In this document: one piece after another, positions 16,655-64,000 of the stretch | How positions within the stretch are numbered: the first letter of the stretch is position 1 | How the letters are laid out: each line of letters starts with the position of its first letter | From: a bacterium | GTDB lineage: Bacteria; Myxococcota; UBA727; JAUIJE01 | Direction of reading: 5' to 3' | Assembly: GCA_030431455.1 (NCBI GenBank) | Contig: JAUIJE010000003.1 | Coordinates: 8,360-72,359 of the forward strand | Length of the DNA: 64,000 nt | The notes under the pieces: model-generated | What the model saw: the letters and a program-made list of their open reading frames with translations, nothing else | What the model was told of the DNA's origin: nothing | Databases searched by the model: none | Position numbers and translations under genes: made by a program

Positions 16655-16732
16655 GGAATCGAGCTTAGGCCGGGAACGTTTCCAGACAAAGGCGGGTCAG
16701 TCCGTCTAAGATTGAAAGTTGAGCGCGTCGGA

Positions 16733-42228: not shown

Positions 42229-42232
42229 GGCA

Positions 42233-43336: not shown

Positions 43337-43416
43337 GGGGCCTCCACCAACCGGTGTGACGGTACCCCAAACGGTCCGGTTTTGCCGTGCTAAAGATCGC
43401 GCCACCGGAGGTGACG
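43337..43416. promoter_or_regulatory. Divergent intergenic region between the MoxR-vWA-SWIM operon and the WGR-DUF4132 gene
   Basis: 80-bp spacer between two divergently oriented starts. GGAGGTGA Shine-Dalgarno before the ATG at 43417. Confidence 0.3.
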
Positions 43417-49203: not shown

Positions 49204-50019
49204 ATGGCCCCGTCGTCTGAAGCGGTCCCGAAGTCAAAGAGCACCCTGCGTCGCTACCTCGACCAGAGCCGCGACCCCGCCAATGCGGTGTTGTTTGTGC
49301 TGCCGCTGTTTGTGGCCTACCAGCTCGGCATCTTGTTCGCGGGGGGCCTGCGCAACGGGGTCGACTTCGTCACCACCGCGCTGTTCCTCGTCATCCGCGG
49401 CGCGGTCAAGCTGCTCACCGGCGCGGCCGCCGACGGTGACGTGCTCATCGGCTACATCGGGCTCAACCTCGTGGTGCTCGCGGGCATGCTCGTGGCCCTG
49501 CGGGTGCTCAACGCCAAGGGCAAGCTGCGCCCCCAAATCTGGCCCTGGATGTTGCTGGAAAGCTTCGTGTACGCGCTCTTTTTCGGGGCCGCGGTCAACG
49601 GCCTGATGCACGCCTTCGGGCTCGACCACCTGCTGGCCACGGTGGCGGAGACGTCGCTGGAAGTGACCTCGATGAAGGAGCTCAACCCCGTGCAGGCCCT
49701 GGTGGCGAGCGTGGGCGCCGGGCTCTACGAAGAGCTGGTGTTCCGGGTGCTGATCTTGGGCGGCATCTTCGCGGTGTTGAACAAGCCCGGTCGGCTCACG
49801 CCCTTTCTCGCCGGCGCGGTGGCGGTGATCGTCTCCAGTTTCATTTTCAGCGCCATCCACCATGTGGGCTCGCTGGGCGACGCCTTCTCGCTCGGGGTGT
49901 TCTTTTTCCGCTTCTTCGCCGGGGCGGTGTTGGCCACGATCTACGCCACCCGCGGCTTCGCCATCGCGGTCTACACCCACGCCCTGTACGACGTATTTGT
50001 GCTCCTGCTCCGGCTCTGA
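49204..50019 (+). CDS. CPBP (CAAX) family intramembrane metalloprotease
   Basis: EELVFR motif, FxxxH and HALYD motifs, 6-7 TM helices. Confidence 0.75.
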   Translation: MAPSSEAVPKSKSTLRRYLDQSRDPANAVLFVLPLFVAYQLGILFAGGLRNGVDFVTTALFLVIRGAVKLLTGAAADGDVLIGYIGLNLVVLAGMLVALRVLNAKGKLRPQIWPWMLLESFVYALFFGAAVNGLMHAFGLDHLLATVAETSLEVTSMKELNPVQALVASVGAGLYEELVFRVLILGGIFAVLNKPGRLTPFLAGAVAVIVSSFIFSAIHHVGSLGDAFSLGVFFFRFFAGAVLATIYATRGFAIAVYTHALYDVFVLLLRL

Positions 50020-50097: not shown

Positions 50098-52635
50098 ATG
50101 GTATTTCGTGGCGTGCCCCTCGACGTCAAACGCTCCGGTCAACTCGGCAACGCCGCCTTTGCGTTGGCGCTGTTTTGTGTGTGTGCGGTGGGCCCCCTCG
50201 TCGGCGTGGTGCACCCACCCATCGTGGTCGGGGTGTTTTTCTGTGCCCTGCTCGCCCTCGTCCTGCACGTCGTCGATCGGCTCTGGGCCCGGCGCCGCCC
50301 CTCGTTCGCCCCGCTGTACGCCTCGCTGTTCGTCGTGGGGGCCGCCCTCAGCGTGGTGCAACTGCTGCCCCTCCCCCACGCCCTGCGCGCGGTGATCGAG
50401 CCCGCCACCACCGAGCGGGTGCAGTGGGTGCTCTCCGCCCTGTCCCCCGAGGCCCTCGAGAGCTTTTGGCCCTCGCTCTCCACAGATCCGGCCCAGACCG
50501 GCCATGAGCTGATTCGGCTCTGCACCGGCCTGTTTGTGTTCTTGGTGCTCGCCGACCGCTGCCGCAAGCGCACCCACCGCCGCACCGTATACCGCGCGCT
50601 CATCGCCAGCGGCGTGCTGGTGTTGATCATCAGCATTGGGCACAAGGTGGCCCAGACCGATTGGGTGTGGGGCATGTTCCGGGCCACCGGCCGCACGCCC
50701 CTCGCCGGGCCGTTGGTCAACCCCAACCACCTCGCGCGGCTCTACGGGGTCATCGCCCTGGTCGCCCTCGGCTACGGGTTCACCGCCCGGGGCCGCAGCG
50801 AGCGGCTGGTCAGCTTCGGCGTCGCCGCGGTGCTGAGCGCGGCGGTGTTTTTGACCTTGTCCCGGGGGGGCGCGTTGGCGTTTGTGGGCGCGGCCGGCTT
50901 GCTCGCCCTGCTGTTCACCCGGGTGCCCGACGAGCCCGACGACAAACATCCCGTGCGCGTGGGCTGGTCGCTGGTGGCCTTGCCCGCGTTGGTGTTCGCG
51001 GGGTTGGCGGTGGCGATCTACCTCGCCCGCGAGGGGTTCTTGGCCGAGCTCGAGATGTCCGCGGACACCACCTTCGAGACCTCCAAGACCGCCATGTACG
51101 GCCCCGCCCTCCGGCTGTTGCAGGACCATTGGCTGCTGGGGGTGTCCACCGGGGGGTTCGAGACCGCGTACCCAGGAGTACTCAACGTCGGCGAACTCAA
51201 GAACCGCACCTTCAGCCACATCGAAAACGGCCTGCTCCAGGTCTTTTTGGACCACGGCGTCATCTTTGGCGCGGCCTTGGTCGCGCTTTTGTTGTTCGTG
51301 GCCCAGCGGGCCTTGTCGTCGGTGAGCGCCCGCCGCGACCTGGTGCCGTTGTGCGCGCTGGCGTTCATGCTGCTCGGGGATGTGTTCGACTTCTTTTTGG
51401 AGATCGGGGCCGGGACCTTGCTCGCCGCGGCCCTGCTCGCGCTGGTGGCCGGGCGCGCGATGGAGCAGCGCCGCACCCGCCGCCATCTCCCCCGCGCCCT
51501 CTGGGCGCCCGCCCTCGCCGCCCTGGTCGTGGTCTGCCTCGCCGCGGTGCCCGCCGCCCTGCTGCACACCCGCTGGACCGTCGACCAGACCCTGCGAACC
51601 CCCGACCTGCCCACCCTCACCCTCGAGCAGGCCCTGGCCCGCCGGCCCCTCGACGGCTTCATCGCCTACCGCCTCGCCGCCGACGCGCGCAAACGGTCGC
51701 ACCCCCGGCGCGCCCTCCGCTGGGCCAACCGCGCCATGGTGCTCTGGCCCAACCTCGGCCCCGCCCACATCGAAGCCGCCCGCGCCCTGTGGTCGGTGGG
51801 CCGCTACGAGCAAGCGTTGCTCGAGTACCGCCTCGCGTGGCGGGCCAAGGCCTTCTCCCACCAAAAGCTCATCGAGGAGCTGAGCCGGCGCACCTCGTCC
51901 CTCGACGCCCGGCTCCGGGCGGTGCCCAACGACGACGCAGGCGCGTTCTCGGCGGTGTGCCGCAGCTTCGAACAGGCCAAAGAGCACACAAAGGCATTGG
52001 AATGCCTGGACCGGCTCTTGGCCCAACACGACCTCGCCGACGCCAAGACCCGGGTGGTGCACGCGGCCCTGGCCGCGGGGGACGTGGACGGGGCCGAGGC
52101 CCGGTTCCAGCGACATTTCCCCCACCAAAACCAGACCGGCCCCGTGCTCGAGCTGCAGAGCAAGATCGAAGAACGGCAGTACGGCCTCGACGAGGCCTAC
52201 ACCCGCGCCCAGGCCCGGGTCCCGGCGGGACAGGCCGCGCCCTTTTTGTGGTGGAAGCTCTACGCCGCCCAGCGTCTGCGCAAGACCGCGGACGCGCTGC
52301 AGATCGCCAAGGCCCTGCGCCCCCTGGTGCACCACCCGCGGGAGCAGGACCGCCTCGACAAGGCCGAGGTCTCGCTGTGGCACGCCCTCGGCAACCTCGG
52401 CGAAGCCCTGCGCGTGGCCGAACGCTGGGCGCGCCGTTCGCCCCGGGACAAGGAAGCGCTCATCGCGTTGCTCGGCCTCGAGATCGAGCTCGACCTGTTC
52501 GCCCGGGCCACCGCCACGTTGCGCCGGGCCGAAGCGGTGGCCAAAGACGACGCCCGCTTGTCACGGTTGCGTCAGTCGTTGGGCGAGCGGCGCGACGAGA
52601 GCAAAGAAGAACGCGCCCGCGACCTGCTCAAGTAG
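50098..52635 (+). CDS. O-antigen ligase/polymerase (Wzy_C) family membrane protein fused to C-terminal TPR repeats
   Basis: About 12 TM helices with a Wzy_C-like LSRGGALAFVGAAGL loop, followed by ~350 aa of TPR-like helical repeats. Confidence 0.65.
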   Translation: MVFRGVPLDVKRSGQLGNAAFALALFCVCAVGPLVGVVHPPIVVGVFFCALLALVLHVVDRLWARRRPSFAPLYASLFVVGAALSVVQLLPLPHALRAVIEPATTERVQWVLSALSPEALESFWPSLSTDPAQTGHELIRLCTGLFVFLVLADRCRKRTHRRTVYRALIASGVLVLIISIGHKVAQTDWVWGMFRATGRTPLAGPLVNPNHLARLYGVIALVALGYGFTARGRSERLVSFGVAAVLSAAVFLTLSRGGALAFVGAAGLLALLFTRVPDEPDDKHPVRVGWSLVALPALVFAGLAVAIYLAREGFLAELEMSADTTFETSKTAMYGPALRLLQDHWLLGVSTGGFETAYPGVLNVGELKNRTFSHIENGLLQVFLDHGVIFGAALVALLLFVAQRALSSVSARRDLVPLCALAFMLLGDVFDFFLEIGAGTLLAAALLALVAGRAMEQRRTRRHLPRALWAPALAALVVVCLAAVPAALLHTRWTVDQTLRTPDLPTLTLEQALARRPLDGFIAYRLAADARKRSHPRRALRWANRAMVLWPNLGPAHIEAARALWSVGRYEQALLEYRLAWRAKAFSHQKLIEELSRRTSSLDARLRAVPNDDAGAFSAVCRSFEQAKEHTKALECLDRLLAQHDLADAKTRVVHAALAAGDVDGAEARFQRHFPHQNQTGPVLELQSKIEERQYGLDEAYTRAQARVPAGQAAPFLWWKLYAAQRLRKTADALQIAKALRPLVHHPREQDRLDKAEVSLWHALGNLGEALRVAERWARRSPRDKEALIALLGLEIELDLFARATATLRRAEAVAKDDARLSRLRQSLGERRDESKEERARDLLK

Positions 52636-53684
52636 GTCGTGAGCAGACCGGTGGCGTCCTGGGCCCGGCGGGCCGCCCACCGCGCGATGTAGGCCGCGGC
52701 CGCCCCCGCCTGGTCGGGGATGAGGGCCCGGCCGGGCATGCCCCGGATGGCAAGGGGTGCGCCGTCGATGCCGAACAGCGCGGACAGAAGCGCGGCCTTG
52801 GCCGCGGGGGGGGCCAGCTCGTCGAGCACGGCCGGGTCGACCCGCGCCCCCAGCCGGCGCTGGACCAAAGACAACAGCGCCCACAAGGCGTGTGCCGCCC
52901 CCGCGCGCTGGGCCCAGGGCACGGCCTCCGCGGGCGCGCCGGGGAACCGGCGGACGAGCCCGGCCACGTCGAGCATTTGTTTATCCCGGCCGGACAGGCC
53001 ATCCCCCGCGAGGTTGGCCGCGGAAAAGGCGAGCCACGGCCCGGGGGCGAGCCCCCACCAGGTCTCGCTCCCGGTGTCGTAGGCCACCCGCTCGTCGAGC
53101 GCGGCCGGGCCAATGTCTCTGAGCGGTTGGTCGGACAACCCGGTGTGCACGTCGACGACCAACTGGGCCCCGGGGGTGGGCCAATGCCAAGGCCGGCCGT
53201 GGGACGCGGCCACGGTGGCTTCGAGCCCCGGGAAGTCGAACTGCCGCGCGCCCTGTTCGCGCAGGAGCTGGGCCACAATGTCTCTGTCTTGGGGCGCGAC
53301 CAGCAGGTCAATGTCTGTGCACCCGCGGTGGCCCCGGCCCCCGAACAGCAACGGGTCCGAGACCAGCCCCTTCAAGAACGCGTGGGCCACCCCCCGATCG
53401 GTCAGCCGGCGGCTCAGCTGTTGGGCCCGCGCGCTGAGCGCGGTGGACGCGAACAGCGCCTCGCGGGTCTTGGCCGACAGCACCGATTCGTCCTCGGCCA
53501 CGTCGAGGGCCAAAAGGCCTGAGAGCACCGGGACCATCAAGCGCTGGCGGTCGGCCCGGGCCAAGACCGCGTCCCGCACCGCGGCGAAGCGGCTCGGATC
53601 GAGCCCCTGGGGGGGCGGCTCGAGGTAGGCGCGCAGGGCGTGGGTGAACGCCCAGTCGACGGCGTGTTCGTCCGGCTGGTTCAC
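52572..53684 (-). CDS. nucleotidyltransferase-fold family protein (polysaccharide-locus associated)
   Basis: GCTDIDLLV matches the NTase-fold hG[GS]..D.D motif. Its 3' end overlaps the convergent Wzy-TPR gene by 64 nt. Confidence 0.45.
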   Translation of the reverse strand: MNQPDEHAVDWAFTHALRAYLEPPPQGLDPSRFAAVRDAVLARADRQRLMVPVLSGLLALDVAEDESVLSAKTREALFASTALSARAQQLSRRLTDRGVAHAFLKGLVSDPLLFGGRGHRGCTDIDLLVAPQDRDIVAQLLREQGARQFDFPGLEATVAASHGRPWHWPTPGAQLVVDVHTGLSDQPLRDIGPAALDERVAYDTGSETWWGLAPGPWLAFSAANLAGDGLSGRDKQMLDVAGLVRRFPGAPAEAVPWAQRAGAAHALWALLSLVQRRLGARVDPAVLDELAPPAAKAALLSALFGIDGAPLAIRGMPGRALIPDQAGAAAAYIARWAARRAQDATGLLTTYLSRSRARSSLLSSRRSPND

Positions 53685-53709: not shown

Positions 53710-55632
53710 TCAGCCGCGCAGGGCGATGATCTCGGCGGTGTCGCGCTTTTGCCGCGGCGCGGGGGCGTTTTTCTGGGACGCGCCCCCGGTGCCGCCCGAG
53801 TCGAACTCGGGCACGATGGTCTTGATCCCGCGGCGCAGCTCGGCGGGGGTGGCGTCGTCGGCCTGCTCGGTCAAGGACGCGACCTGGGCTTGGACCCAAG
53901 CCCACTCGTAGGTGCGTTTTTGGCCCACGAAGATCTTGGGGTGTTTTGTCTTTTCTGCGTTCTCTTCGTCGCGGGCGAGCTCTTCGAAGAGTTTTTCCCC
54001 CGGCCGCACCCCGGTGAACTTGATCTCGATGTCCTCGTCGGGAACGAAGCCGGACAAGGTGATGAGGTCGCGGGCGAGGTCGACGATTTTGACCGGCTGG
54101 CCCATGTCGAGCACGAAGATTTCGCCCCCGTCGCCCATCGAGCCGGCCTGCAAGATGAGCTGACAGGCTTCGGGGATGGTCATGAAGTAGCGGGTCATGT
54201 CCGGGTGGGTGACGGTGACGGGGCCGCCGGTCTTGATCTGTTCTTTGAAGATGGGGATCACGCTGCCGGCGGATCCAAGCACATTGCCAAAGCGCACGGT
54301 GACGAACTTCGTCTCGCTCCGCGCCGACAACGTTTGGATATAGATCTCCGCCACCCGCTTGCTCGCCCCCATCACGCTGGTGGGGTTGACCGCCTTGTCG
54401 GTGGACACCATCACGAACCGCTCCACCGAGAACCGGTCGGCCATGTCCGCGAGCACCTTGCTGCCGCGGATGTTGTTCTTCACCGCTTCGCCCGGGTTCC
54501 ATTCCATCATCGGCACGTGTTTGTGGGCGGCGGCGTGGAACACCACCCGGGGCCGGTGCTCCTCGAACAGGCCCTGCATCCGGGCCTGGTCGGCCACGTC
54601 GGCGATGGCCGGCACCACGTCGAGCTCGGGGAACTGGCCGACGAGCTGGCGGTGGATCTCGAACAGGTTGTTCTCCGCGCGCTCGACGAGGATCAACCGC
54701 CGGGGCCCAAACCGCGCCACCTGGCGGCAGAGCTCGGACCCGATGCTGCCCCCCGCGCCGCTGACCAGGACCACCGCCCCGTGCACGCTCTCGGAGATGA
54801 CGTCCGACTCCAATGCCACAGGATCACGCCCGAGCAAGTCCTCGATCGCGACGTCCCGGATTTGATTCACCCGCACCGTGCCGTCGATGAGGGAGTTGAT
54901 GCCGGGGATGGTGCGCACGTCGACCTTGGCCTGCTTGCACACCGCGAGGATGCGCCGCATCTGGGTCCCGGTGGCGGTGGGGATGGCCACCACCACCTCG
55001 TGCACGTCGTGGCGCTTGACCAGCTCGGGCACCAGGCCGATCTTGCCGAACACCGGGAGGTTGTGGATGCGCGAGCCCTTTTTGCGGACGTCGTCGTCGA
55101 CAAAGCCCACCGGTTGGTAGCGAGAGGTGTGCGATTTCTGCACCTCGCGAACCAGCATCTCGGCCGCGTCCCCCGCCCCCACGATGAGCAGCCGGCGCTT
55201 CTCCGACGCGCGGGAGGCGATCTCAGCGCTGACCTCGCGCAGCTTGCGGATGCCAAAGCGCAGGCCCCCGACCATAAAGATGGTGGTGCCGAACTCGATG
55301 ACGAAGATGGAGCGGGGGAAGCCCTTGGCCGAGGTGAACACCACGAACAACAAAAACAGCGTCGAGCCGAGGGCGGTGGATTTGAACAGCGCGACCAGGT
55401 CTTTGGCCCCGGTGTAGCGCCACAGCCCCTGGAAGTTGCCGAACACCGCCGCGGACAGGACGCGCACGGTCAAAAGCGCGCCCCCCCACACGTAGATGCG
55501 GGGGAAGAGCACGTCGGGGAGCGAAAAGTCGAAGCGGAGCAGGAACGCGGTCACATACGCGAACGACCACAACGCGACGTGGACGAGCACGATGAACACA
55601 CGGCGGTAGCTGAGAAGGATGCTCTCAGACAA
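53710..55632 (-). CDS. pglF: membrane-bound UDP-N-acetylglucosamine 4,6-dehydratase (PglF/CapD/WbpM family)
   Basis: N-terminal 4-TM domain, a Rossmann VSGAGGSIG motif, and SDR dehydratase motifs. The TTG start at 55632 has an AGGAGG SD 6 nt upstream; the upstream RSG-rich part of the ORF is rejected. Confidence 0.8.
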   Translation of the reverse strand: MSESILLSYRRVFIVLVHVALWSFAYVTAFLLRFDFSLPDVLFPRIYVWGGALLTVRVLSAAVFGNFQGLWRYTGAKDLVALFKSTALGSTLFLLFVVFTSAKGFPRSIFVIEFGTTIFMVGGLRFGIRKLREVSAEIASRASEKRRLLIVGAGDAAEMLVREVQKSHTSRYQPVGFVDDDVRKKGSRIHNLPVFGKIGLVPELVKRHDVHEVVVAIPTATGTQMRRILAVCKQAKVDVRTIPGINSLIDGTVRVNQIRDVAIEDLLGRDPVALESDVISESVHGAVVLVSGAGGSIGSELCRQVARFGPRRLILVERAENNLFEIHRQLVGQFPELDVVPAIADVADQARMQGLFEEHRPRVVFHAAAHKHVPMMEWNPGEAVKNNIRGSKVLADMADRFSVERFVMVSTDKAVNPTSVMGASKRVAEIYIQTLSARSETKFVTVRFGNVLGSAGSVIPIFKEQIKTGGPVTVTHPDMTRYFMTIPEACQLILQAGSMGDGGEIFVLDMGQPVKIVDLARDLITLSGFVPDEDIEIKFTGVRPGEKLFEELARDEENAEKTKHPKIFVGQKRTYEWAWVQAQVASLTEQADDATPAELRRGIKTIVPEFDSGGTGGASQKNAPAPRQKRDTAEIIALRG

Positions 55633-55720
55633 CGATCCCCTCCTGTTTGGGTAGGTGCCTTCTGTGGGCGGGATCGTTCTTTGAAAAGTGGGATCTAGGC
55701 CAATTCCTTTGAGATTTGGC

Positions 55721-57241
55721 TCAACTCGGCCCACCTGGGGCCTGGACCGCCTCGATGTCGGCGATGTCGACCCCGAAGACCCCGTTGCGCCAGTGCACTG
55801 TGCCGGCCGGCTGCCAGGGCGCAGCCATGTTGGACAAAAGCCGGTCGCGCTCCCAGCGCATCTCGTCGGAGATGACCTTGACCCGGACCTCAAAGGTGAG
55901 GTCATCGAGCAAGAGCCCCTCCCGGGCGGCCCAATAGGCGGTCCAGCGCTTGGTGGCCTTTTTGAAGCGAACGCGTTTGAACCGTGGTCGGTTGGTGCGG
56001 AACGACGTGTACACCCAGCCCCGGCCTCGGTTGTAGCCCGCGGCTTGCCCCTGCTCGTCAATGAGCGGCAGCCAGGTCTCCGTTTGGTCCTCGTCCCGGT
56101 GCACCAGCGCGATGATGTGGTTGTAGCCCTGAAAGTGCATGTCCAAGAACACGGGGTGGGGGTGGACGCCGATCACCGACCGAAAGGCCTTGGCGACGCT
56201 CTTGGCCGATCGCTTGGCCGACCGCAGGGTGGACTCTTCGGCCACCAACCCCAGGGCCGCCCGGCCCACCGTCGAGCGCGCCATGGTCTGGGTGGACTGG
56301 AGCACAAACACCGCCGCCAGTACCGCAGGAAGAAGACGCGCGACGTCGGGCAAGCCGCCGCGCAGTCCTGGCAGATGCGACCATCGTGCTCGCCGCGCGG
56401 GGTCCGGGGGCCCAAAGATCGGCCGCAACCAGCCATGGGGAATCAAGAGCGCGTACAGCGCCGCCACCCCGAGACCGAACCAAGGGATGGGGAACGCGAC
56501 CATGATCCCCAGGTGCAGTCCCATTCCGATGCACAACAGCGGCAACCTGGCCCGGCGCGTCCAAAACACAAACAGAAACGCGGTCTCGAACGCCAACGTC
56601 AGGTGGCTGAGGGTGAGCACCAGCCAGCGTTGGTTGAGCACCGCGTTGAGCGGCCCCGCCGGGGCCCACGTCGCCCAGGGCATCGACGCGGGGAACCACA
56701 TGCCCAGCCCACCGCGCCACATCGGGCTTCCCCACTTGTAAAACACCGAGTCAAAGTAAGTGAGGCCGGCGCCCAAAAACAGGAACGCCCACGCCCACCC
56801 GCGCGGAACGGTGGCTTTCCATGGTTGTCCCCGTCGTCGCGCCCACGCCGCGTCCACCGACAACCGGGCGGAGAGCGGGGCGAAGGGCAACAGGAACGCG
56901 AGCTCCACGATGACGTAGTCGTTGTGGTACTCCCACGACCTGGTTTGGCCGAAGGTGAAGATCGACAACACGAACAGCAACGTGGCCATCGTCCGGGTCT
57001 TGAGCCCCACGATGAACAGCAGCGTGACCACGATGGCGCCGGTCCACACCAGATGCCGCCAGGACCAGAGCGAATCGTAGGGGGGCACCCGGTACATCAG
57101 TGCGTCCATCGAGAACCACTGCACCATCTCGCCCAGAAGCGAGCAGCCCCACAGAACACGAAACAGTGCCAAGCCGATCCCGTCGATCGGCTTGGCAAAC
57201 GCATCGGTGAGTCGGGTGTAGGCGCGGACCAGCGCGTTCAT
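55721..57241 (-). CDS. HTTM (vitamin-K-dependent gamma-carboxylase-like) domain membrane protein with ~190-aa C-terminal extension
   Basis: HTTM N-terminus (GIGLALFRVLWG..) and a multi-TM core. The start ATG overlaps the upstream aminotransferase stop (ATGA). Confidence 0.6.
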   Translation of the reverse strand: MNALVRAYTRLTDAFAKPIDGIGLALFRVLWGCSLLGEMVQWFSMDALMYRVPPYDSLWSWRHLVWTGAIVVTLLFIVGLKTRTMATLLFVLSIFTFGQTRSWEYHNDYVIVELAFLLPFAPLSARLSVDAAWARRRGQPWKATVPRGWAWAFLFLGAGLTYFDSVFYKWGSPMWRGGLGMWFPASMPWATWAPAGPLNAVLNQRWLVLTLSHLTLAFETAFLFVFWTRRARLPLLCIGMGLHLGIMVAFPIPWFGLGVAALYALLIPHGWLRPIFGPPDPARRARWSHLPGLRGGLPDVARLLPAVLAAVFVLQSTQTMARSTVGRAALGLVAEESTLRSAKRSAKSVAKAFRSVIGVHPHPVFLDMHFQGYNHIIALVHRDEDQTETWLPLIDEQGQAAGYNRGRGWVYTSFRTNRPRFKRVRFKKATKRWTAYWAAREGLLLDDLTFEVRVKVISDEMRWERDRLLSNMAAPWQPAGTVHWRNGVFGVDIADIEAVQAPGGPS

Positions 57242-58449
57242 GCGCGGTGTTGTTGCACAAGCTCCCGCACGCTGTCGATGACGGTCTGTTGTTCGTCGTC
57301 GGTCATGCCGGGAAAGAGGGGCAGGCTGATGAGCCCCTCGTAGGCGGCCTCGGCCACGGGAAACATGCCCGGGCCGGTGCCGTAGGTCTGGCGATAGTAG
57401 GGATGCAGATGCAGCGGCATCCAATGCACGCTGCAGCCGATGCCGCGTTCTTTGAGCGCGTCGATGAAGTCGTTGCGCGAGATGCTCAGCGTCCCGGGCA
57501 CAAGCCCAATGGGGAACAGGTGCCAGGAGCTTTGCCGGTCATCGTGTTCGGTGAGGGTCCAGAGCGCGGGCTCGTCGGCGAAGGCACTTTGGTACACCCC
57601 GGCGAGACGGCGGCGCTCTTGCCAGAGCTCATCCGCGCGGGCGAGCTGGTGCAGGCCGATGGCGGAGGCGATGTCGGTGAGGTTGTACTTAAAGCCGGGG
57701 GCGACGATTTCGTAATACCAACTCGCCTTGGTGTCGAAGCGGCGCCAGGCGTCTTTGCTCATGCCGTGCAGGGACATGACCCGCATGCGATCGGCGAGCT
57801 TTTCGTCGTCGGTGACGGCCATGCCCCCTTCGCCGGTGGTGATGCACTTGTTGGCGTAAAAGGAAAAGCACACGATGTCCGCGGTGGTCCCGCAGGGCCG
57901 CCAGGTGTCGCCCTCTCCCTTGGCGTAGGCAGGCATGCAGTGGGCCGCGTCCTCGATGAGGGCCAGGTCATAGGCCTCGGCCAAGGCGCGCACGCCGTCG
58001 ACGTCGGCCATCTGCCCCGCGTAGTGCACGGGGATGATGGCGCGGACTCTTTGGTACGGCGGCTTGAGCCCGGCCACGGGCTGGCCTTGGCGGATGGCCT
58101 CGAGGGTCTCGCCCGCCTTTTGGGTGTCGATGCACAATGTATCTGGTCGGCAATCGACCATCACCGGCACCGCGTCGAAGTAGCGCACGACCTCGGCGGT
58201 GGCGGCGAAGGTGAAGGTGGGCACGATCACGAGCTCGCCGGGCTGGATGCCCACCGCCTCGAGGGCGAGGTGGAGCGCGGCGGTGCAGGAGTTGAGGGCC
58301 ACCGCGTGTTTGGCCCCGACCTTTTGCGCGAACTCCTCTTCGAAGCGTTTGGTCTTGGGCCCGGTGGTGAGCCAGCCCGAGCGCAAGGTGTCGACGACCT
58401 CGTTGATCTCAGCGTCGGTGATGTGGGGGCGGAAGAACGGGACGTTCAT
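57238..58449 (-). CDS. DegT/DnrJ/EryC1/StrS sugar aminotransferase (PglE/WecE-like)
   Basis: PLP-dependent sugar aminotransferase fold with a SFYANK-type Lys motif (FSFYANKCITTGEGG). Confidence 0.85.
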   Translation of the reverse strand: MNVPFFRPHITDAEINEVVDTLRSGWLTTGPKTKRFEEEFAQKVGAKHAVALNSCTAALHLALEAVGIQPGELVIVPTFTFAATAEVVRYFDAVPVMVDCRPDTLCIDTQKAGETLEAIRQGQPVAGLKPPYQRVRAIIPVHYAGQMADVDGVRALAEAYDLALIEDAAHCMPAYAKGEGDTWRPCGTTADIVCFSFYANKCITTGEGGMAVTDDEKLADRMRVMSLHGMSKDAWRRFDTKASWYYEIVAPGFKYNLTDIASAIGLHQLARADELWQERRRLAGVYQSAFADEPALWTLTEHDDRQSSWHLFPIGLVPGTLSISRNDFIDALKERGIGCSVHWMPLHLHPYYRQTYGTGPGMFPVAEAAYEGLISLPLFPGMTDDEQQTVIDSVRELVQQHRA

Positions 58450-59123
58450 GTCGGGGTCTCTTTTGTGGAGAGCTGGGCGAGGCATTCGTCGAGCACCGAT
58501 TGTTGTTCGGCGGGGATCTTGCCGAGGACCGAGAGCGCGGTCTTGGCCACGATGCCGAGGTCGAACAACAGCGATTGCGACTCAACCCCGCGCTGGGCGA
58601 GCTCGAGTTTTTTGGGCAGGACCACTTCGCGGTAGGCCCACTCGCGGTCGGTGGCCCGGGCGAGGATGTCCTCTTCGTGGCGAAAGGTGAGCGAAGACAG
58701 ATCGGTGATGCCGGGCCGGACCTGGAGCACCGCCTGCCAGCGCGGGTCTTGCTCGTCGACGTAAGCCGGGGCTTCGGGCCGCGGCCCGACAATGCTCATG
58801 TCCCCGCGCAACACGTTGATGAGCTGGGGCAACTCGTCGAGTTTGGTCTTGCGCAAGATGCGGCCCACGGGGGTGATGCGGGCATCGCCGGCCGCGGTCA
58901 CCGCCGGGCCTTGTTTGTCCGCGCCTTGGGTCATGGTGCGCAGCTTGAGCGTGGAAAAGGGCCGACCGTCTTTGCCGATGCGGCGGTGGGCGAACAGCGC
59001 CGGCCCGTCGGAGGTGGCCTTGACCAACACTGCCCCGGCCGCGAGCAAGGGCACGGTCAACGGGGCGGTGCCAAGCACACAGGCGACATCGAGCCCGCGT
59101 TTCAATCGCCGGTAAAGACTCAC
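58446..59123 (-). CDS. undecaprenyl-phosphate sugar phosphotransferase (PglC/WbaP-C-terminal-like bacterial sugar transferase)
   Basis: Conserved PRP..E catalytic segment (DMSIVGPRPE). The GTG start has a GGAGGG SD and overlaps the upstream stop (GTGA). Confidence 0.75.
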   Translation of the reverse strand: MSLYRRLKRGLDVACVLGTAPLTVPLLAAGAVLVKATSDGPALFAHRRIGKDGRPFSTLKLRTMTQGADKQGPAVTAAGDARITPVGRILRKTKLDELPQLINVLRGDMSIVGPRPEAPAYVDEQDPRWQAVLQVRPGITDLSSLTFRHEEDILARATDREWAYREVVLPKKLELAQRGVESQSLLFDLGIVAKTALSVLGKIPAEQQSVLDECLAQLSTKETPT

Positions 59124-59773
59124 CGCACCCTCCGGGCGGGCGCGCCGACGTAGAGGCCGGGTTCGGTGAGGTCTTGGGTGACCACGGTGCCGCCGCCGGT
59201 CTGGACTCGGTCGTGGATCGTCACGTTGTCGATGACGGTGGTGCCGATGCCCAAAAAGCACTCGCGTCCGACGGTGACGTAGCCCGCAAGGTTCACCGCC
59301 GGGCCGAGAAAGGTGTGGGCCCCCACGGTGGTGTCGTGGGCGATGACGCAACCGGCGTTCAGCAAAGAATTGGCCTCTACGCGCGCGCCCACGTCGAGCA
59401 CGCAGCGGGGGAACAGCACCGCGCCGTCGGCCACGGTGGCGGTGGGATGTACGTAGGCGCTTTCGTGCACCACCGCGGCGAACTGATGACCGGCCTGGAT
59501 GAGCGCGGCAAACAGCGACGCCCGGGCCTCGAGATGTTTGTAGCCGATGCCCATGACCAGGCGGTCGAATGGACCGCGGGGGTCATGTTGGCGCTTGAGC
59601 GGCTGAATCGCCCCGAGCACGGGCAAGCCGGTGACTTGGGTCCCAGGCTCGAGGGTGTCGTCGTAAAAACCCACGCAACGCCATTGTCCAGACGTCGCCA
59701 GATGGGCGGCCAGGGTCTGGCCGAGGTCGCCGGCCCCGAGGATGGCCACGGGCACTTTGTCGGCCGGGCTCAT
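59120..59773 (-). CDS. PglD/NeuD-like sugar N-acetyltransferase (hexapeptide left-handed beta-helix)
   Basis: N-terminal Rossmann-like AILGAGDLGQ and C-terminal hexapeptide repeats. ATGA overlap with the upstream gene. The R/P-rich 5' half of ORF 59120..60589 is rejected. Confidence 0.75.
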   Translation of the reverse strand: MSPADKVPVAILGAGDLGQTLAAHLATSGQWRCVGFYDDTLEPGTQVTGLPVLGAIQPLKRQHDPRGPFDRLVMGIGYKHLEARASLFAALIQAGHQFAAVVHESAYVHPTATVADGAVLFPRCVLDVGARVEANSLLNAGCVIAHDTTVGAHTFLGPAVNLAGYVTVGRECFLGIGTTVIDNVTIHDRVQTGGGTVVTQDLTEPGLYVGAPARRVR

Positions 59774-60774
59774 GTGCCGAGCTCGCGGACAGGGGTGGGG
59801 CGCGCGGCCTCGAGCGGCACCGCTTGCTCGTCGAGGTTGAACGTCCGTTGCACGCCGTAGATGGGCCGCGCCTTGGCCTCGGCGTAGAGCCGCCCGAGAT
59901 AGCTGCCGATGAGGCCGAGCAGAATGATCTGCACCGAGCCGAGCAAGAGGATGACGAGGATGGTCGAGGTCCACCCAGACATGCCGATGCCGAACACGAG
60001 CTTGCGAATGAAGGCGTACAGGCCCCACAGCGAGGTGGCGGCGAGCAAGGTCACGCCAAAGCTGATGCCAAGCTGAAGGGGCTTGTCCGAAAACGCGATC
60101 ATCGCGTTGAGCGCCAGGCGCATGCGACGGCGGAAGTTGAACTTGGTCTGGCCGGCAAAGCGCGGGCGGTGCTCGACCTCGAGGGTGGTGCGGCGCATGC
60201 CGACGAGCATGAAGATGCCCTCGATGAAGCGCACGCGCTCTTTGTGCTGCAAGAACGCTTCGGCGAAGGGCCGGTTGAAGATGCGCATCACCGACAGGCC
60301 GGTGGGGATTTGCAGCCCCGTCATCCAGTTGAGCGAGGTCCAAAACACCTTGGAGAAGAGCCGGGTCGAGAGCGAGGCCGAGCGCTCTTTGCGCACGCCG
60401 AACACGAGGTCGTAGCCCTCTTGGGCCTTTTGGTAGAAGTCGACGATGCGCTCGGGCGGGTCTTGCAGGTCGGGGTCCATCATCAGCATCCACCGCCCGC
60501 GGGCGTGTTCGATGCCGGCGGTGACCGCCGCCTCCTTGCCATGGTTGCGCGAGAGCTGCACGAGTTTGATGCGGTCGTCGTCCGCGCAAAGTGCAGCGGT
60601 GAGTTCGACCGTGCGGTCCTGGCTCCCGTCGTCAACAAATACGATCTCGTACGTGAGGTCCTCGTCGTCGAGAGCCGCGCGCACCTGGCGCACAAACTCC
60701 TCCACGCACTCTTCCTCATAGTAGAGCGCCACGATGAGCGAGAGGTCCGGGCGATCGCTCACCCTGCCCCCCAC
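59770..60774 (-). CDS. GT2 polyprenyl-phosphate glycosyltransferase (ArnC/GtrB/DPM1-like)
   Basis: GT2 DxD region (VFVDDGSQD), a conserved core, and two C-terminal TM helices. An alternative GTG start at 60762 would give a GTGA overlap with the upstream gene. Confidence 0.8.
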   Translation of the reverse strand: MGGRVSDRPDLSLIVALYYEEECVEEFVRQVRAALDDEDLTYEIVFVDDGSQDRTVELTAALCADDDRIKLVQLSRNHGKEAAVTAGIEHARGRWMLMMDPDLQDPPERIVDFYQKAQEGYDLVFGVRKERSASLSTRLFSKVFWTSLNWMTGLQIPTGLSVMRIFNRPFAEAFLQHKERVRFIEGIFMLVGMRRTTLEVEHRPRFAGQTKFNFRRRMRLALNAMIAFSDKPLQLGISFGVTLLAATSLWGLYAFIRKLVFGIGMSGWTSTILVILLLGSVQIILLGLIGSYLGRLYAEAKARPIYGVQRTFNLDEQAVPLEAARPTPVRELGT

Positions 60775-61469
60775 TGGGCCACGGCGTACGCGGTCAGCCC
60801 CGCCCAGCTCTGTACATACGGACAGTCCACGTGCGGTCCATAGCGCCCCGCCACGTCGAGCAAAACCGGGGAAAGCCCCGCCCCGCGCGCCCCGGTCACG
60901 TCGGCCACATAATCGTTGCCCACGTACACACAGTCCGCGGCGGCCAGGCCCGTTCGCGCCAAAAAGCCCGCGAACGCTCCCGGGGCGGGCTTTTCCACCC
61001 CGAGCGCTTGAGACGAAAGCGCCGCGCGAAAGAAGCCGTCCAGCCCCGCGTCGGCGAGGACCCGTTCGAGACCAAGGTCCCAGTTGGCCAACACGTACAA
61101 ATCCGTACGCGCGGCAAACGTGTCCAGCGCGGCCCGCACCCCGTCGTGCGGGACCCAGCGACGTTGGGCGCGCACCGCCTCGACCATGCGCGGCCCGAAC
61201 GCCTTTTCGTACGAACCAAGCCCCAACGCGGACAGCACCGCGCGGTTGAGCCGCGCGTAGAACGCGGCCTTGTCCTCCTCGGTGGCGAGCTCACTTGAAT
61301 GCATCTGCATCGCAAAGTCGACCCGGGCGTACGCCTGCGTGACCGCCGCCAGAGGGACCTCGACCCCGAGGTCCTGCAACACCCCGGCGCACATCTCTTC
61401 GCGGCGCGGCGACAGGTGCAGCAAGGTATCGCCACAATCGAACACCAACGTGGGCCACGCTTCGCTCAT
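60759..61469 (-). CDS. HAD-superfamily hydrolase
   Basis: Motif I FDCGDT at the real N-terminus (MSEAWPTLVFDCGDTLL) and a YVGND motif IV. The upstream RGP-rich ORF extension is rejected. Confidence 0.6.
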   Translation of the reverse strand: MSEAWPTLVFDCGDTLLHLSPRREEMCAGVLQDLGVEVPLAAVTQAYARVDFAMQMHSSELATEEDKAAFYARLNRAVLSALGLGSYEKAFGPRMVEAVRAQRRWVPHDGVRAALDTFAARTDLYVLANWDLGLERVLADAGLDGFFRAALSSQALGVEKPAPGAFAGFLARTGLAAADCVYVGNDYVADVTGARGAGLSPVLLDVAGRYGPHVDCPYVQSWAGLTAYAVAQWGAG

Positions 61470-62425
61470 GCCACCACCAGTTCGGTCCAATGCCGAAACA
61501 CGGTCGCTTCTTGGGGGGCGTGTCGGGGCATGGCCTGGCCGTGCACGAAGTGGTCGTAGAGCCGGATGGGGTCGTTCACGCCCAGGGCGACCCGCATCGC
61601 GGTCGAGCCGGACAAACGCGGATTGATTTCGAACACCCGCGGCGTGCCCTGCTCGTCGAGCCGCAGCTGCACATTGATGGCCCCGCGCGCGCCGGTGAGC
61701 GCGGGGGCCAGCCTGGCAAAGAAGTCGTCCAGGAACCCATCGGTGCGGGGTCGGCACCACATCGTGCGCCCGTCGCGCAATCCGCGCTCGCACACCACCG
61801 TGTCGCAGAGGGCGCCGTCCCGGTCGAACAACAGCCCACAGGTGTATTCCGGCCCCTCGACGTAACGCTGCGCGCAGGGCGCATCCGTGGAGAGCCACGC
61901 GGACAGAAACGAGGTCTCGTCGTGGCAGATGGAAATCGCGCTCGAGCCGTGACCTGCCCGGGGCTTGACCACGAGCGGCAACCCCAGCTGCTCAAGCACC
62001 TGCTGGGCCGCGACCTCGGGCCCGCAGGTCGGCAAATGGGGCAGGCCGGCCCGATCCAGCAACATTTGGGTGCGGACCTTGTCGCTGGCGTGGTGCACAA
62101 AATCGGGCGAAGCCACGAGCACCTGCGCGCCGGTCTTCTGCTCGACCTCGGTCCGGTGTTCGGCCCAGAGCGGAATCTCTTGGTCGATGCCCAAAAAGAG
62201 GCACTCGATGTCGTGGGCCATAAGCTGCGCGGAAATCGCGTCGATGTAGCCGGGGTCTTTGACCAGAGGGGGACGGTGGTGCGCGTCGACGAGATGAAAC
62301 CCGGCACAGTCGGAGGACGCATCCAAGCCGAGCAGGAAGAAGTCGCGGCCCGACGTGCGCAGGGCCTTGATCACCCCGAGGCCGACATCGCCGCTCACCC
62401 CGGTGATCGCCACCCGCCCGGTCAC
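61466..62425 (-). CDS. ATP-grasp domain protein (CarB/PurK/DdlA-like ligase)
   Basis: ATP-grasp core (LPLVVKPRAGHGS, EINPRLSG). The GTG start overlaps the upstream stop (GTGA). Confidence 0.6.
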   Translation of the reverse strand: MTGRVAITGVSGDVGLGVIKALRTSGRDFFLLGLDASSDCAGFHLVDAHHRPPLVKDPGYIDAISAQLMAHDIECLFLGIDQEIPLWAEHRTEVEQKTGAQVLVASPDFVHHASDKVRTQMLLDRAGLPHLPTCGPEVAAQQVLEQLGLPLVVKPRAGHGSSAISICHDETSFLSAWLSTDAPCAQRYVEGPEYTCGLLFDRDGALCDTVVCERGLRDGRTMWCRPRTDGFLDDFFARLAPALTGARGAINVQLRLDEQGTPRVFEINPRLSGSTAMRVALGVNDPIRLYDHFVHGQAMPRHAPQEATVFRHWTELVVA

Positions 62426-63234
62426 GCGCCCTCCGCCATGGCCAAGATGGTGTCGCTGAGCGGGGTGAACGGTCGGGCGAGCAGCTCGCGCGCCGGCCCC
62501 GCGTCATAGGACGCGGGCTTGCCACCGTCGCCCGTGCGGTCGTCGACAACGTCACTGGACGACTGGAGCGCGGCTTTGACCGCATCGGCGAGCGCGCGCA
62601 TGTCGAGGGTCGTGTCCGAAAAAGCGTTCACCACGTCCCGGTCCTCGTCGAGCAGGCGCGCCGCCAAGTCGGCCACGTCCTCGACCGCGATGAAGTTTTG
62701 CACGTACGCCCGTGGACCGACCACCCGCAACGGGTCGCCGGCCTTGGCCGCGGCCACGAAGGTGGGCAACACCGATCGCAGCGTGGGCGCGGGACCCGCG
62801 ATCGAGCTCGGCCGCAACACCGAAAGCCGCGCGCCGAACGCCTGCCGCAACACCTGCTCGGCCGCGGCTTTGTCCGCGCCATACGGGCCCGGGGCCGGGG
62901 CCGACGCAAAAGGTCCCCAGCCGGGGACCTCGTCGGTGCCGTACACCGAAACCGACGAGAGGTACACCACCTTGCGCAATGCTTGTGCACGCGGGCTCTC
63001 CACCAACGCCTCGGCCAGCGCGCGGTTCGGCCAGGGGGCGCCCCCCCGACGGGGCAACACCCCGGCCACGTGCACCAGTTCGCTCACGTCGTCGAGCGCC
63101 GTGGTCCAGCTCGCGGGCTGCGCAAGGTCGCCACCGGCTCGGTCGTGCGCGCGCCCGGTGCGTCCCGCGCGTGACAACGCAGAGACCACGTGACGGCCCA
63201 CGAACCCCGCCGCTCCGGTGACGAGGGTGGTCAT
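62422..63234 (-). CDS. NAD-dependent epimerase/dehydratase (SDR)
   Basis: N-terminal TGAAGFVG Rossmann motif. Y..K active-site motif not checked. Translationally coupled to its neighbours. Confidence 0.7.
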   Translation of the reverse strand: MTTLVTGAAGFVGRHVVSALSRAGRTGRAHDRAGGDLAQPASWTTALDDVSELVHVAGVLPRRGGAPWPNRALAEALVESPRAQALRKVVYLSSVSVYGTDEVPGWGPFASAPAPGPYGADKAAAEQVLRQAFGARLSVLRPSSIAGPAPTLRSVLPTFVAAAKAGDPLRVVGPRAYVQNFIAVEDVADLAARLLDEDRDVVNAFSDTTLDMRALADAVKAALQSSSDVVDDRTGDGGKPASYDAGPARELLARPFTPLSDTILAMAEGA

Positions 63235-64000
63235 GTCGCGACCACGCTCCCCTCGTCGCGCACGTGCTCGAGGTAATCACGATAGACCGAACGCGGGAGC
63301 TGTTGGACCAACTGCGCGAACGCATCGTGCGACAGGTACCCGCGCCGGTACGCGACCTCTTCCGGGGAGCCGATGATCAGCCCTTGGCGCGACTGCAGCG
63401 CGTGCACGAAGCTCGAGGCTTCGAGCAGATTTTCCGGTGTACCGGTGTCGAGCCAGGCGATGCCGCGGCCCATCGGCCGGGCCCGGAGCTGACCATTCTC
63501 GAGGTAGACGCGGTTGAGGTCGGTGATTTCGAGCTCGCCCCGCGCCGAGGGCGCAAGCGCCTTCGCATACGCGGGGGCGTGCTCGTCGTAGAGGTACATG
63601 CCGGGGACCGCCCAGGGTGATTTGGGCTTTTTGGGTTTTTCTTCGAGGGACACGACCTGAAAGTCCGCGTCCACCTCGACCACGCCGTACGCGCTCGGGT
63701 CGGCCACGCGATAGCCGAACACGGTGGCGCCTTCTTTGAGCTGTTCGACCTCTTCGCGCAAAAAGTCGAGCCGGCCGTAGATGAAGTTGTCGCCGAGCAT
63801 GAGCATGCTCTTGTGCCCGTCGAGGAACGTCTCCGCGAGCACCAACGCTTCAGCGATGCCGCGGGGTGCGGCCTGCTCTTGGTACGCGAGCGACACGCCC
63901 CAGCGCGACCCGTCGCCCAGCAACTGTTCGAACCGCGGGAGGTCTTCGGGCGAGCTGATGATCAGAATCTCACGCAGCCCGGCCACCATCATGGTGGTGA
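63231..64000 (-). CDS. rfbA: glucose-1-phosphate thymidylyltransferase (RmlA/RfbA); N-terminus lies beyond the window
   Basis: C-terminal ~255 aa of RmlA (..GYRVADPSAYGVVE.., EITDLN, SHDAFAQLVQ). The ORF runs off the window end. Confidence 0.85.
   Translation of the reverse strand, partial: TTMMVAGLREILIISSPEDLPRFEQLLGDGSRWGVSLAYQEQAAPRGIAEALVLAETFLDGHKSMLMLGDNFIYGRLDFLREEVEQLKEGATVFGYRVADPSAYGVVEVDADFQVVSLEEKPKKPKSPWAVPGMYLYDEHAPAYAKALAPSARGELEITDLNRVYLENGQLRARPMGRGIAWLDTGTPENLLEASSFVHALQSRQGLIIGSPEEVAYRRGYLSHDAFAQLVQQLPRSVYRDYLEHVRDEGSVVAT

Follow-up and report, generated by a model that had tools for sequence, protein, structure and literature searches.

Vitamin K-dependent gamma-carboxylase (GGCX) carboxylates glutamate, a chemistry known for the Gla proteins of animals and, in the form of the bacterial enzyme MloH, which carboxylates an aspartyl residue of a small molecule, for one antibiotic pathway. 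Other bacterial HTTM proteins number in the thousands, and the only bacterial HTTM functions mentioned in the papers that we retrieved are those of MloH and of a predicted HTTM-DUF5819 complex. Here we describe an HTTM gene in a 64,000-nucleotide stretch of a Myxococcota genome (GenBank assembly GCA_030431455.1, contig JAUIJE010000003.1, forward-strand positions 8,360 to 72,359; hereafter the window). The encoded protein, G9, resembles GGCX in its modelled fold, lies in an operon of sugar-modification genes and belongs to a subfamily whose genomic partners are enzymes of N-acylated 4-amino sugars.

Two described systems provide context for these partners. In the capsule of Campylobacter jejuni, the amidoligase Cj1438C ligates a phosphorylated amine, after which Cj1435 removes the phosphate (PMC11800379). 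N-acetylglycyl, acyl-alanyl and further N-acyl groups have been described on the 4-amino sugar Qui4N (PMC3210612; PMC7685785). An N-malonyl amino sugar, Qui4NMal, has been mentioned for an E. coli capsule; nothing ties Qui4NMal to HTTM.

An initial annotation of the window, made from the sequence alone, had pointed out that an HTTM protein has no known role in a glycan operon. Our full-text literature searches, which combined HTTM or gamma-carboxylase with glycosyltransferase, polysaccharide or O-antigen, bear this out, returning no relevant paper. As far as we could find, neither this HTTM subfamily nor its fixed association with an N-acyl-amino-sugar cassette has been described; the association suggests that the surface glycans of bacteria undergo a chemical modification not described so far.

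G9 is a relative of vitamin K-dependent gamma-carboxylase

The gene in question is the ninth of the operon:

55721-57241, minus strand: G9, GGCX-like HTTM membrane protein, 506 amino acids

The PF05090 match of G9 is marginal, scoring 32.0 bits against a gathering score of 27.7, and runs over residues 17-271, covering the whole 259-position profile. A single-sequence search of G9 against the PDB gave no match, and a profile of the subfamily reached GGCX chains at E 1.2e-3. An AlphaFold2 model of G9 built on 13 homologues is confident (pLDDT 84, pTM 0.86). Foldseek comparison of this model with the PDB returned 16 GGCX entries at E <= 3e-4, the best at 4.5e-8 with a probability of 1.0 and a TM-score of ~0.5 on the query. 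The next match after GGCX stood at E 0.18, and no GT-C or transporter structure was matched.

An exhaustive profile search of 1.84 billion 50%-identity clusters (E <= 1e-30) delimits an HTTM subfamily of 431 cluster representatives. In the profile alignment with human GGCX, residues H106, K169, W175, E219 and F255 of G9 fall on H160, K218, W223, D263 and F299, respectively. Across 159 full-length subfamily members, pairwise no more than 50% identical, these positions are conserved at 97% (H106), 100% (K169), 99% (W175), 98% (E219) and 100% (F255). A 2025 structural paper on GGCX assigns to these residues the deprotonation of vitamin K hydroquinone (KH2), the holding of CO2 and the orientation of the substrate carboxylate (PMC12647623). 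Judged by these positions, the membrane core of G9 is a competent-looking GGCX-type active site, joined to a substrate-recognition part that is different. The assignment of G9 to this class, as a genuine relative of GGCX, is well supported by the modelled fold, the profile alignment and the conserved residues. The possibility that the HTTM call was a spurious weak Pfam match was considered and rejected, because the fold resembles GGCX only, the residues are conserved and the subfamily counts 431 members.

About nine transmembrane helices lie within residues 1-322 of G9. Since lysine and arginine together number 13 in the predicted cytoplasmic loops and 3 in the short periplasmic loops, the N-terminus is placed in the cytoplasm, and both the C-terminal domain and the catalytic side are predicted to face the periplasm. 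The C-terminal domain (about residues 336-506, ~170 amino acids; 55721-56230 of the window) is specific to the subfamily and conserved within it. It opens with an HxxFxDxH motif (H362 96%, F365 98%, D367 85%, H369 93%), which could form a metal site or a second active site. No Pfam model covers this domain. An identity with the luminal domain of GGCX or with a DUF5819-like domain was also considered, and a separate model of the domain (pLDDT 82) gave no PDB match (best E 0.14).

Other members of the subfamily vary in size and copy number. Those of ~600-640 amino acids (P0003, P0004, P0006, P0010 and most Bacteroidota loci, e.g. L028-L064) have an insert of ~110-130 amino acids between transmembrane helices 8 and 9, which G9 is without. 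The insert of P0010 is recognisable as a thiol-disulfide oxidoreductase domain of the DCC/DUF393-like type (PF04134) and has a CxxC motif, which is degenerate in the others. Tandem HTTM paralogues occur as two copies in L008, L025, L034 and L038 and as three in L063, a Myxococcota metagenome-assembled genome (MAG) in which the three genes stand in a row with no glycan genes nearby.

The HTTM subfamily accompanies an amino-sugar cassette in five phyla

To define the genomic surroundings of the subfamily, one genome per species was scanned, open reading frames (ORFs) were clustered, family hidden Markov models (HMMs) were built and representatives were annotated; the counts below rest on MAG-rich collections and on our own ORF clustering and HMM thresholds. 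The scan yielded 57 genome loci with HTTM from the Bacteroidota, Verrucomicrobiota, Planctomycetota, Campylobacterota and Myxococcota/Bdellovibrionota. Already among the initial few homologues, the HTTM gene lay beside SDR, ATP-grasp, HAD, GT2, PglD-like and DegT genes. Among the 34 loci in which both flanks of HTTM reach 8 kb or more, a PglD-like acetyltransferase gene lies within 9 kb of HTTM in 33; the DegT aminotransferase is near HTTM in 30, followed by an ATP-grasp protein (21), a HAD protein (18), an ArnC-like GT2 (18), a GT56 transferase of the WecF family (11) and WbqC (10). The link between HTTM and genes for N-acylated 4-amino sugars across five phyla is thus well supported.

Two sets of alternatives are apparent in the same 34 loci, in which GT2 and GT56 are mutually exclusive, as are the SDR, ATP-grasp and HAD trio and WbqC. 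Ligases were counted in the 37 HTTM loci with flanks of at least 6 kb, and exactly one candidate carboxylate-amine ligase stands by HTTM in 36 of them. In 23 loci this candidate is a PylC-like ATP-grasp, in 10 it is WbqC, and the remaining 3 have a Ddl-like ATP-grasp. A FemAB/CelD-like gene takes the place of the ligase in two truncated loci. The cassette is therefore modular, with interchangeable ligases (ATP-grasp with HAD and SDR, WbqC, or Ddl-like) and interchangeable transferases (GT2 or GT56). Because the two transferases alternate, two delivery routes for the finished cassette sugar are suggested. Likewise, as the trio, WbqC and the Ddl-like ATP-grasp fill the slot next to HTTM as mutually exclusive alternatives, WbqC (PF08889, function unknown) is suggested to be an acyl or aminoacyl ligase for amino sugars. 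A literature search found no functional paper on WbqC.

The order SDR, ATP-grasp, HAD is conserved among related loci, and HAD directly follows ATP-grasp in nearly all loci that have both. The initial annotation had read the ATP-grasp and HAD genes as the source of an additional ligated decoration; with this conserved pairing and the C. jejuni capsule as precedent, the idea is plausible. It had also tied the HTTM and ATP-grasp genes to the pgl-like genes of the operon. The tie holds for the PglD-like, DegT, GT2 and ligase genes across the five phyla and does not extend to PglF and PglC, homologues of which accompany HTTM in only 3-4 of 64 loci (3 of 64 for the PglC-like gene).

The reverse comparison started from 80 metagenome loci seeded with the ATP-grasp gene, 24 of which had full flanks. 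HAD is present in 22 of these 24, GT2 in 19 and HTTM in 10 (~42%). As fewer than half carry HTTM, the gene is optional to the cassette, and the dependence is one-sided: the cassette is nearly obligatory for HTTM, and HTTM optional for the cassette. Where present, HTTM often comes directly after genes for export (Wzm/Wzt or Wza/Wzc) or adjoins Acyl_transf_3, another enzyme that modifies glycans outside the cytoplasm.

In three Verrucomicrobiota loci (L009, L010 and L011), the gene after DegT encodes a protein of 725 amino acids that has no Pfam match; its N-terminal part contains many transmembrane segments and its C-terminus is TPR-like. It is possibly an unrecognised GT-C-type partner of the cassette GT2.

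The window operon joins two modules

The window has a GC content of ~70%, so reading frames were picked by third-position GC, and start codons were then inspected. Ten minus-strand genes, G1-G10, occupy positions 53710-64000, and profile searches with Pfam and NCBIfam reproduced all the domains that the initial annotation had given them. Together with G9, listed above, they are:

63231-64000, minus strand: G1, rmlA/rfbA, glucose-1-phosphate thymidylyltransferase, N-terminus cut by the window end (PF00483, 151 bits; TIGR01207 rmlA, 319 bits on the truncated protein)
62422-63234, minus strand: G2, short extended-SDR protein of the epimerase/reductase family, 270 amino acids (PF01370, 88.6 bits)
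61466-62425, minus strand: G3, ATP-grasp protein with PylC-like N-domain, candidate carboxylate-amine ligase, 319 amino acids (PF15632, PF02655, PF21360; NF009402, 224.8 bits against a cut-off of 218)
60759-61469, minus strand: G4, HAD-IA phosphatase, 236 amino acids (PF00702, 42.7 bits; TIGR02252, 86.6 bits)
59770-60762, minus strand: G5, GT2 of the ArnC/GtrB/PgfS-like polyprenyl-phosphate sugar transferase type, 330 amino acids (PF00535, 103 bits)
59120-59773, minus strand: G6, hexapeptide sugar N-acetyltransferase of the PglD/NeuD/VioB family, 217 amino acids (TIGR03570, 172 bits against a cut-off of 160.8)
58446-59123, minus strand: G7, small phosphoglycosyl transferase (Bac_transf, PglC-like), 225 amino acids (PF02397, 175 bits)
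57238-58449, minus strand: G8, NDP-4-keto-sugar aminotransferase of the DegT/PglE/PseC/ArnB type, 403 amino acids (PF01041, 400 bits)
53710-55632, minus strand: G10, membrane-anchored PglF-like NDP-HexNAc 4,6-dehydratase, 640 amino acids (PF02719, Polysacc_synt_2, 406 bits, and CoA_binding_3)

Two further genes lie at the downstream end:

52572-53684, minus strand: G11, NTP_transf_5 family protein, 370 amino acids (PF14907, 76.5 bits)
50098-52635, plus strand: Wzy_C (O-antigen ligase/polymerase/PglL-type) and TPR_19 membrane protein, 845 amino acids (PF04932, 51 bits)

Eight consecutive ATGA/GTGA start-stop overlaps link the genes from the G1/G2 to the G8/G9 junction; the initial annotation had recognised the run and counted seven. 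Overlaps of this type are possible at 6 of the 19 other same-strand junctions of the window and are therefore common in this genome. The run continues upstream: contigs carrying identical proteins (L065, 1-4351, and L001, 1-4011) show that the operon extends past position 64000 with a partial GNAT-like ORF, a GT2 (339 amino acids), a DegT aminotransferase (375 amino acids, hereafter DegT375), RmlB (353 amino acids) and the full-length RmlA (G1, 293 amino acids in L065), with 4-nucleotide overlaps throughout. Counted with these upstream genes in L065, the unbroken run reaches 12 overlaps. Such a run marks one tightly coupled operon and nothing exotic.

Between G9 and G10 lies a gap of 88 nucleotides that includes an AGGAGG Shine-Dalgarno sequence, and no terminator-like hairpin was found in it. 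G10 starts with TTG at 55632 after this AGGAGG, in agreement with the gene call in L001, and has N-terminal hydrophobic segments. G11 follows on the same strand, 25 nucleotides downstream of G10, and is probably the last gene of the operon; it has no homologue among the related HTTM loci. The Wzy_C gene is convergent to the operon, its 3' end overlapping that of G11 by 64 nucleotides. An Rfam scan of the window found no RNA genes.

For G5 the top NCBIfam matches are PgfS (245 bits, cut-off 500) and ArnC (164 bits, cut-off 529), both below threshold; with hydrophobic segments at 233-286 forming C-terminal transmembrane helices after the GT2 domain, G5 appears to have the ArnC/GtrB/PgfS architecture and not to be an equivalog of either. 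The scores of G8 for PseC (363 bits) and ArnB (337 bits) are likewise below the cut-offs. When G2, G3 and G6 were searched against the PDB, a functionally informative neighbour was obtained for G6 only. The nearest entries to this acetyltransferase are PglD (best, 81 bits), PerB, the Neisseria PglB acetyltransferase domain (PglB-ATD) and VioB. The nearest solved relatives of G2 are NDP-sugar 4-epimerases (6wjb, MoeE5; E 1e-10 to 1e-11), and the nearest entry to G3 is 2pn1, of unknown function.

Comparison with the cassette genes of other genomes divides the operon in two. G6 is 40-52% identical to cassette acetyltransferases, G5 is 43-50% identical to cassette GT2 proteins in other phyla, and DegT375, found upstream beside RmlB and RmlA, shares 40-45% identity with the cassette aminotransferases of 46 loci. 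G8, by comparison, is 25-31% identical to most cassette aminotransferases, reaching 39% in two loci. Because DegT375, G5 and G6 are orthologues of cassette proteins and G8 is more distant, the operon comprises two amino-sugar branches, one UDP-based and one dTDP-based, the presence of the latter following from RmlA and RmlB.

The locus is thus one translationally coupled glycan-biosynthesis operon that joins two modules, and as a whole it is an ordinary kind of thing. Module 1 is, by homology, a UDP-sugar priming branch made up of G10, G8 and G7. Module 2 is, by conserved synteny, a mobile cassette, found in at least five phyla, of RmlA, RmlB, DegT375, the trio G2-G4, G5 and G6, with the HTTM protein G9. 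This division bears on the pgl-like pathway that the initial annotation had proposed: the PglF-, PglE- and PglC-like genes do form a UDP-sugar priming set, whereas the PglD-like G6 is the orthologue of a separate cassette acetyltransferase. A 2,4-diacetamido-trideoxyhexose (diNAcBac) product, which had been taken to follow from these genes, is not implied by two amino-sugar branches and a cassette-type G6; it is possible if G6 also acetylates the UDP-4-amino sugar. For the route through G5, the only nearby candidate membrane partner is the convergent Wzy_C and TPR protein, possibly a partner for the operon's glycan of the PglL, WaaL or Wzy type.

Proposed function of the HTTM protein

In the pathway that we propose, the dehydratase G10 and the aminotransferase G8 would make a UDP-4-amino-4,6-dideoxy-HexNAc, and G7 would load this UDP-derived amino sugar onto undecaprenyl phosphate. 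In the second branch, RmlA, RmlB and DegT375 would make a dTDP-4-amino-4,6-dideoxyhexose, to whose 4-amino group a candidate ligase would add an amide-linked acid or amino acid (here G3 with G4 and G2, elsewhere WbqC or a Ddl-like ATP-grasp), with the PglD-like G6 acting as the N-acetylating enzyme. G5 would attach the completed sugar to undecaprenyl phosphate so that its transfer can take place outside the cytoplasm, a role that a WecF-like GT56 would fill in other loci by cytoplasmic transfer. G9 would be an optional late tailoring enzyme in the periplasm, acting after export. With menaquinol and O2, G9 would produce a strong base able to take up a proton alpha to a carbonyl in the N-acyl or aminoacyl substituent of the sugar. 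Addition of CO2 would follow, in a reaction of the kind that GGCX carries out on Glu and MloH on Asp. The exported glycan, lipid-linked or polymerised, would thereby acquire a metal-binding group of the malonate type.

The main argument for this substrate comes from the modularity of the cassette. Because four unrelated ligase types alternate beside an invariant trio of HTTM, DegT and PglD, the HTTM protein would recognise the substituent, and not the sugar ring or the lipid carrier. All phyla with HTTM loci are, as far as is known, users of menaquinone. Our preferred interpretation, for now a tentative one, is that G9 is an optional enzyme, dependent on menaquinol, that tailors an amide-linked acyl or aminoacyl group of a 4-amino-4,6-dideoxyhexose in the periplasm, probably by carboxylating it; we infer its substrate, product and quinone dependence from the genes and residues described above. 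A wider claim, namely that a widespread subfamily (~430 clusters at 50% identity in the Bacteroidota, Verrucomicrobiota, Planctomycetota, Campylobacterota and Myxococcota) carboxylates, by means of menaquinol, O2 and CO2, an amino-acid or acyl substituent of a 4-amino-4,6-dideoxyhexose on exported surface polysaccharide, is possible, and we regard it as rather doubtful in this full form.

Several points weigh against carboxylation of a sugar substituent. The conserved GGCX residues show a competent quinol-activating site and not carboxylation itself. Among the residues that bind glutamate in GGCX, N159 is replaced by Y105 in G9 (Tyr in 157 of 159 members), and the equivalent of Y395 is either not conserved or not alignable; no likeness of the C-terminal domain to a solved structure, the luminal domain of GGCX included, could be detected. 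A Leptospira orthologue is reported to have epoxidase activity, with carboxylase activity not detected. No carboxylated substituent is known to be tied to any cassette locus. The putative role of WbqC as a ligase is suggested by the N-acetylglycyl-Qui4N clusters of E. coli O121 and Shigella dysenteriae 7. Finally, an O2-dependent step is less obvious in those carriers that are microaerophilic or are MAGs placed among anaerobes (Sulfuricurvum, Arcobacter, Akkermansia-like).

One alternative is a quinol-dependent oxygenase or epoxidase-type enzyme that brings about a non-carboxylating, base- or oxygen-dependent change in the glycan substituent (epimerisation, hydroxylation or keto oxidation) or has a redox role connected with the DCC-like insert of Bacteroidota members. 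The conserved residues for KH2 activation also fit such an enzyme, as do the loss of the Glu-binding N159 and the bacterial orthologue that reportedly has epoxidase and no carboxylase activity, and the DCC/DUF393-like insert in many Bacteroidota members (PF04134 in P0010) suggests a redox cycle. Conservation of 99-100% at W175 and F255, equivalent to W223 and to F299 of the CO2 pocket, is nonetheless hard to explain without the use of CO2, and the only bacterial HTTM enzyme with a proven product, MloH, is a carboxylase. We consider this explanation unlikely.

A second explanation, distinctly improbable in our view, takes the HTTM protein for a membrane transferase (GtrC/ArnT-like) or flippase for the undecaprenyl-phosphate-linked sugar supplied by G5, a polyprenyl-binding scaffold without redox or carboxylation chemistry. 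A G5 of the ArnC/GtrB/PgfS type needs a downstream membrane partner, the operon contains no recognisable GT-C or GtrA protein, and in L003 HTTM is the sole polytopic membrane protein of a six-gene cassette; moreover, GGCX binds a polyprenylated quinone, which makes a polyprenyl pocket plausible. Against these stand the equal presence of HTTM in loci with a cytoplasmic GT56 in place of GT2 (18 with GT2, 11 with GT56, never both), a fold that matches GGCX and neither GT-C enzymes nor known flippases, and invariant residues that are those of quinol deprotonation and CO2 trapping. In addition, ~58% of the 24 ATP-grasp-seeded cassettes are without HTTM, and since GT2 is present in 19 and HTTM in 10, several GT2 cassettes work without it. 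A disguised GT-C transferase or flippase was set aside as a leading idea on the GGCX-only fold and on the presence of HTTM with either transferase.

That HTTM is a passenger modifying a peptide or protein, as SdpB-type or GGCX enzymes do, in an otherwise ordinary O-antigen or exopolysaccharide operon is very unlikely: the known HTTM substrates are peptides or peptide-like molecules, some 58% of ATP-grasp-seeded cassettes do without HTTM and in the distant locus L063 three HTTM genes stand in tandem where glycan genes are absent, but the PglD-like gene (33/34), DegT (30/34) and a ligase (36/37) lie within a few kb in five phyla and in differing gene orders, G9 overlaps its upstream neighbour by ATGA inside the operon, and no precursor-peptide-like or propeptide-bearing gene was seen adjoining HTTM.

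Should the proposed carboxylation of a sugar substituent hold, the enzyme family would have its first glycan substrate, and bacterial cell surfaces would gain a new modification, Gla-like and able to bind metal. A carboxylated glycan substituent would link menaquinone and oxygen status to surface structure, and would make G9 a membrane CO2-fixing enzyme with a non-peptide substrate. The present result is a defined subfamily with cultivable carriers and a sharp partner set, composed of a 4-amino-sugar aminotransferase, an N-acetyltransferase and one of several ligases. Among the cultivable carriers are Flavobacterium limnosediminis JC2902 (L030), F. luminosum (L047), Roseivirga pacifica (L031), Pedobacter sp. 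CAN_A7 (L051), Gynurincola endophyticus (L056), Agriterribacter humi (L061) and Bernardetia sp. OM2101 (L008). The definition of the cassette, with its swappable ligases and transferases, is also useful for annotating O-antigen and capsule loci.

Other genes in the window

Convergent on the operon, and next to the Wzy_C gene, lie two more genes:

47894-49147, plus strand: GH113 glycoside hydrolase
49204-50019, plus strand: Rce1/CPBP-like protease

Further away, a set of five genes (36825-46941) resembles a conserved MoxR-VWA system:

36825-38816, minus strand: SWIM zinc-finger protein
38804-39946, minus strand: VWA/CoxE-like protein
39922-42228, minus strand: DUF5682 protein
42233-43405, minus strand: MoxR-type AAA_5 ATPase
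43387-46941, plus strand: WGR and DUF4132 protein, 1184 amino acids, divergent from the other four

An AddAB-like pair at 10119-16696, formed by a UvrD-helicase/PD-(D/E)XK nuclease (~1367 amino acids) and a second PD-(D/E)XK protein (~1063 amino acids) with an ATGA overlap, is ordinary recombination machinery.

Comparison with known systems

The window operon shares homologues of PglF, PglE, PglD and PglC with the UDP-diNAcBac (pgl) pathway of Campylobacter and Neisseria. It differs from that pathway in having RmlA and RmlB, and no PglB (STT3), PglK, pgl glycosyltransferase or Wzx was found among the scanned window genes. Furthermore, the acetyltransferase to which its PglD-like G6 is orthologous occurs together with HTTM and a dTDP-sugar aminotransferase in loci that have neither PglF nor PglC.

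The dTDP-based branch has its closest counterparts in the dTDP-Qui4NAc and dTDP-Fuc4NAc pathways (VioA/VioB and WecE/WecD/WecF). No HTTM gene is described in those pathways, or in the O-antigen clusters for N-(N-acetyl-aminoacyl)-Qui4N, in the literature that we searched. Shared with the operon are RmlA/RmlB, DegT and a VioB/PglD-type acetyltransferase, and GT56 occurs in 11 of 34 related loci.

In amidation of the C. jejuni HS:2 capsule (Cj1438 C-terminal ATP-grasp amidoligase, Cj1435 HAD phosphatase, Cj1437 aminotransferase), ATP-grasp and HAD proteins are likewise paired in a glycan locus (PMC11800379). The logic there is that a phosphorylated partner is ligated by an amide bond and the phosphate is then removed (PMC11800379); in the window, G3 and G4 are adjacent and share an ATGA overlap. 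In Cj1438C the ATP-grasp is TupA-like and forms a fusion with a GT2, whereas G3 is free-standing and PylC-like (PylC-like, ATP-grasp_3 and ATPgrasp_Ter by Pfam). The carboxylate in HS:2 is that of glucuronate, whereas in the cassette the likely nucleophile would be the 4-amino group of the sugar.

The Arn modification of lipid A, Gtr glucosylation of O-antigen and the Pgf system of S. mutans resemble the G5 route, with G5 having the same GT2 domain and C-terminal helices and its best matches in PgfS and ArnC. A further likeness to Arn is that the sugar is worked on by an aminotransferase and an N-acylating enzyme before it is transferred to undecaprenyl phosphate. Unlike these systems, the window has no GtrA/ArnEF-type flippase or GT-C partner that we could find, and G5 scores below the equivalog cut-offs.

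GGCX differs from G9 in several respects. The sequence similarity is marginal (none with the single sequence, E 1.2e-3 with the profile), N159 is changed to Tyr, and the C-terminal domain of 170 amino acids in G9 has no match to the propeptide-binding luminal domain, with no evident propeptide-bearing substrate. The partners of the HTTM subfamily are amino-sugar enzymes, and not peptide or nonribosomal peptide synthetase–polyketide synthase (NRPS-PKS) genes. In common with GGCX, its only PDB match, G9 has the HTTM transmembrane fold, with equivalents of K218, H160, W223, D263 and F299. Its predicted catalytic side, as in GGCX, faces away from the cytoplasm and, like MloH, it sits in a biosynthetic gene cluster and not beside Gla-protein genes.

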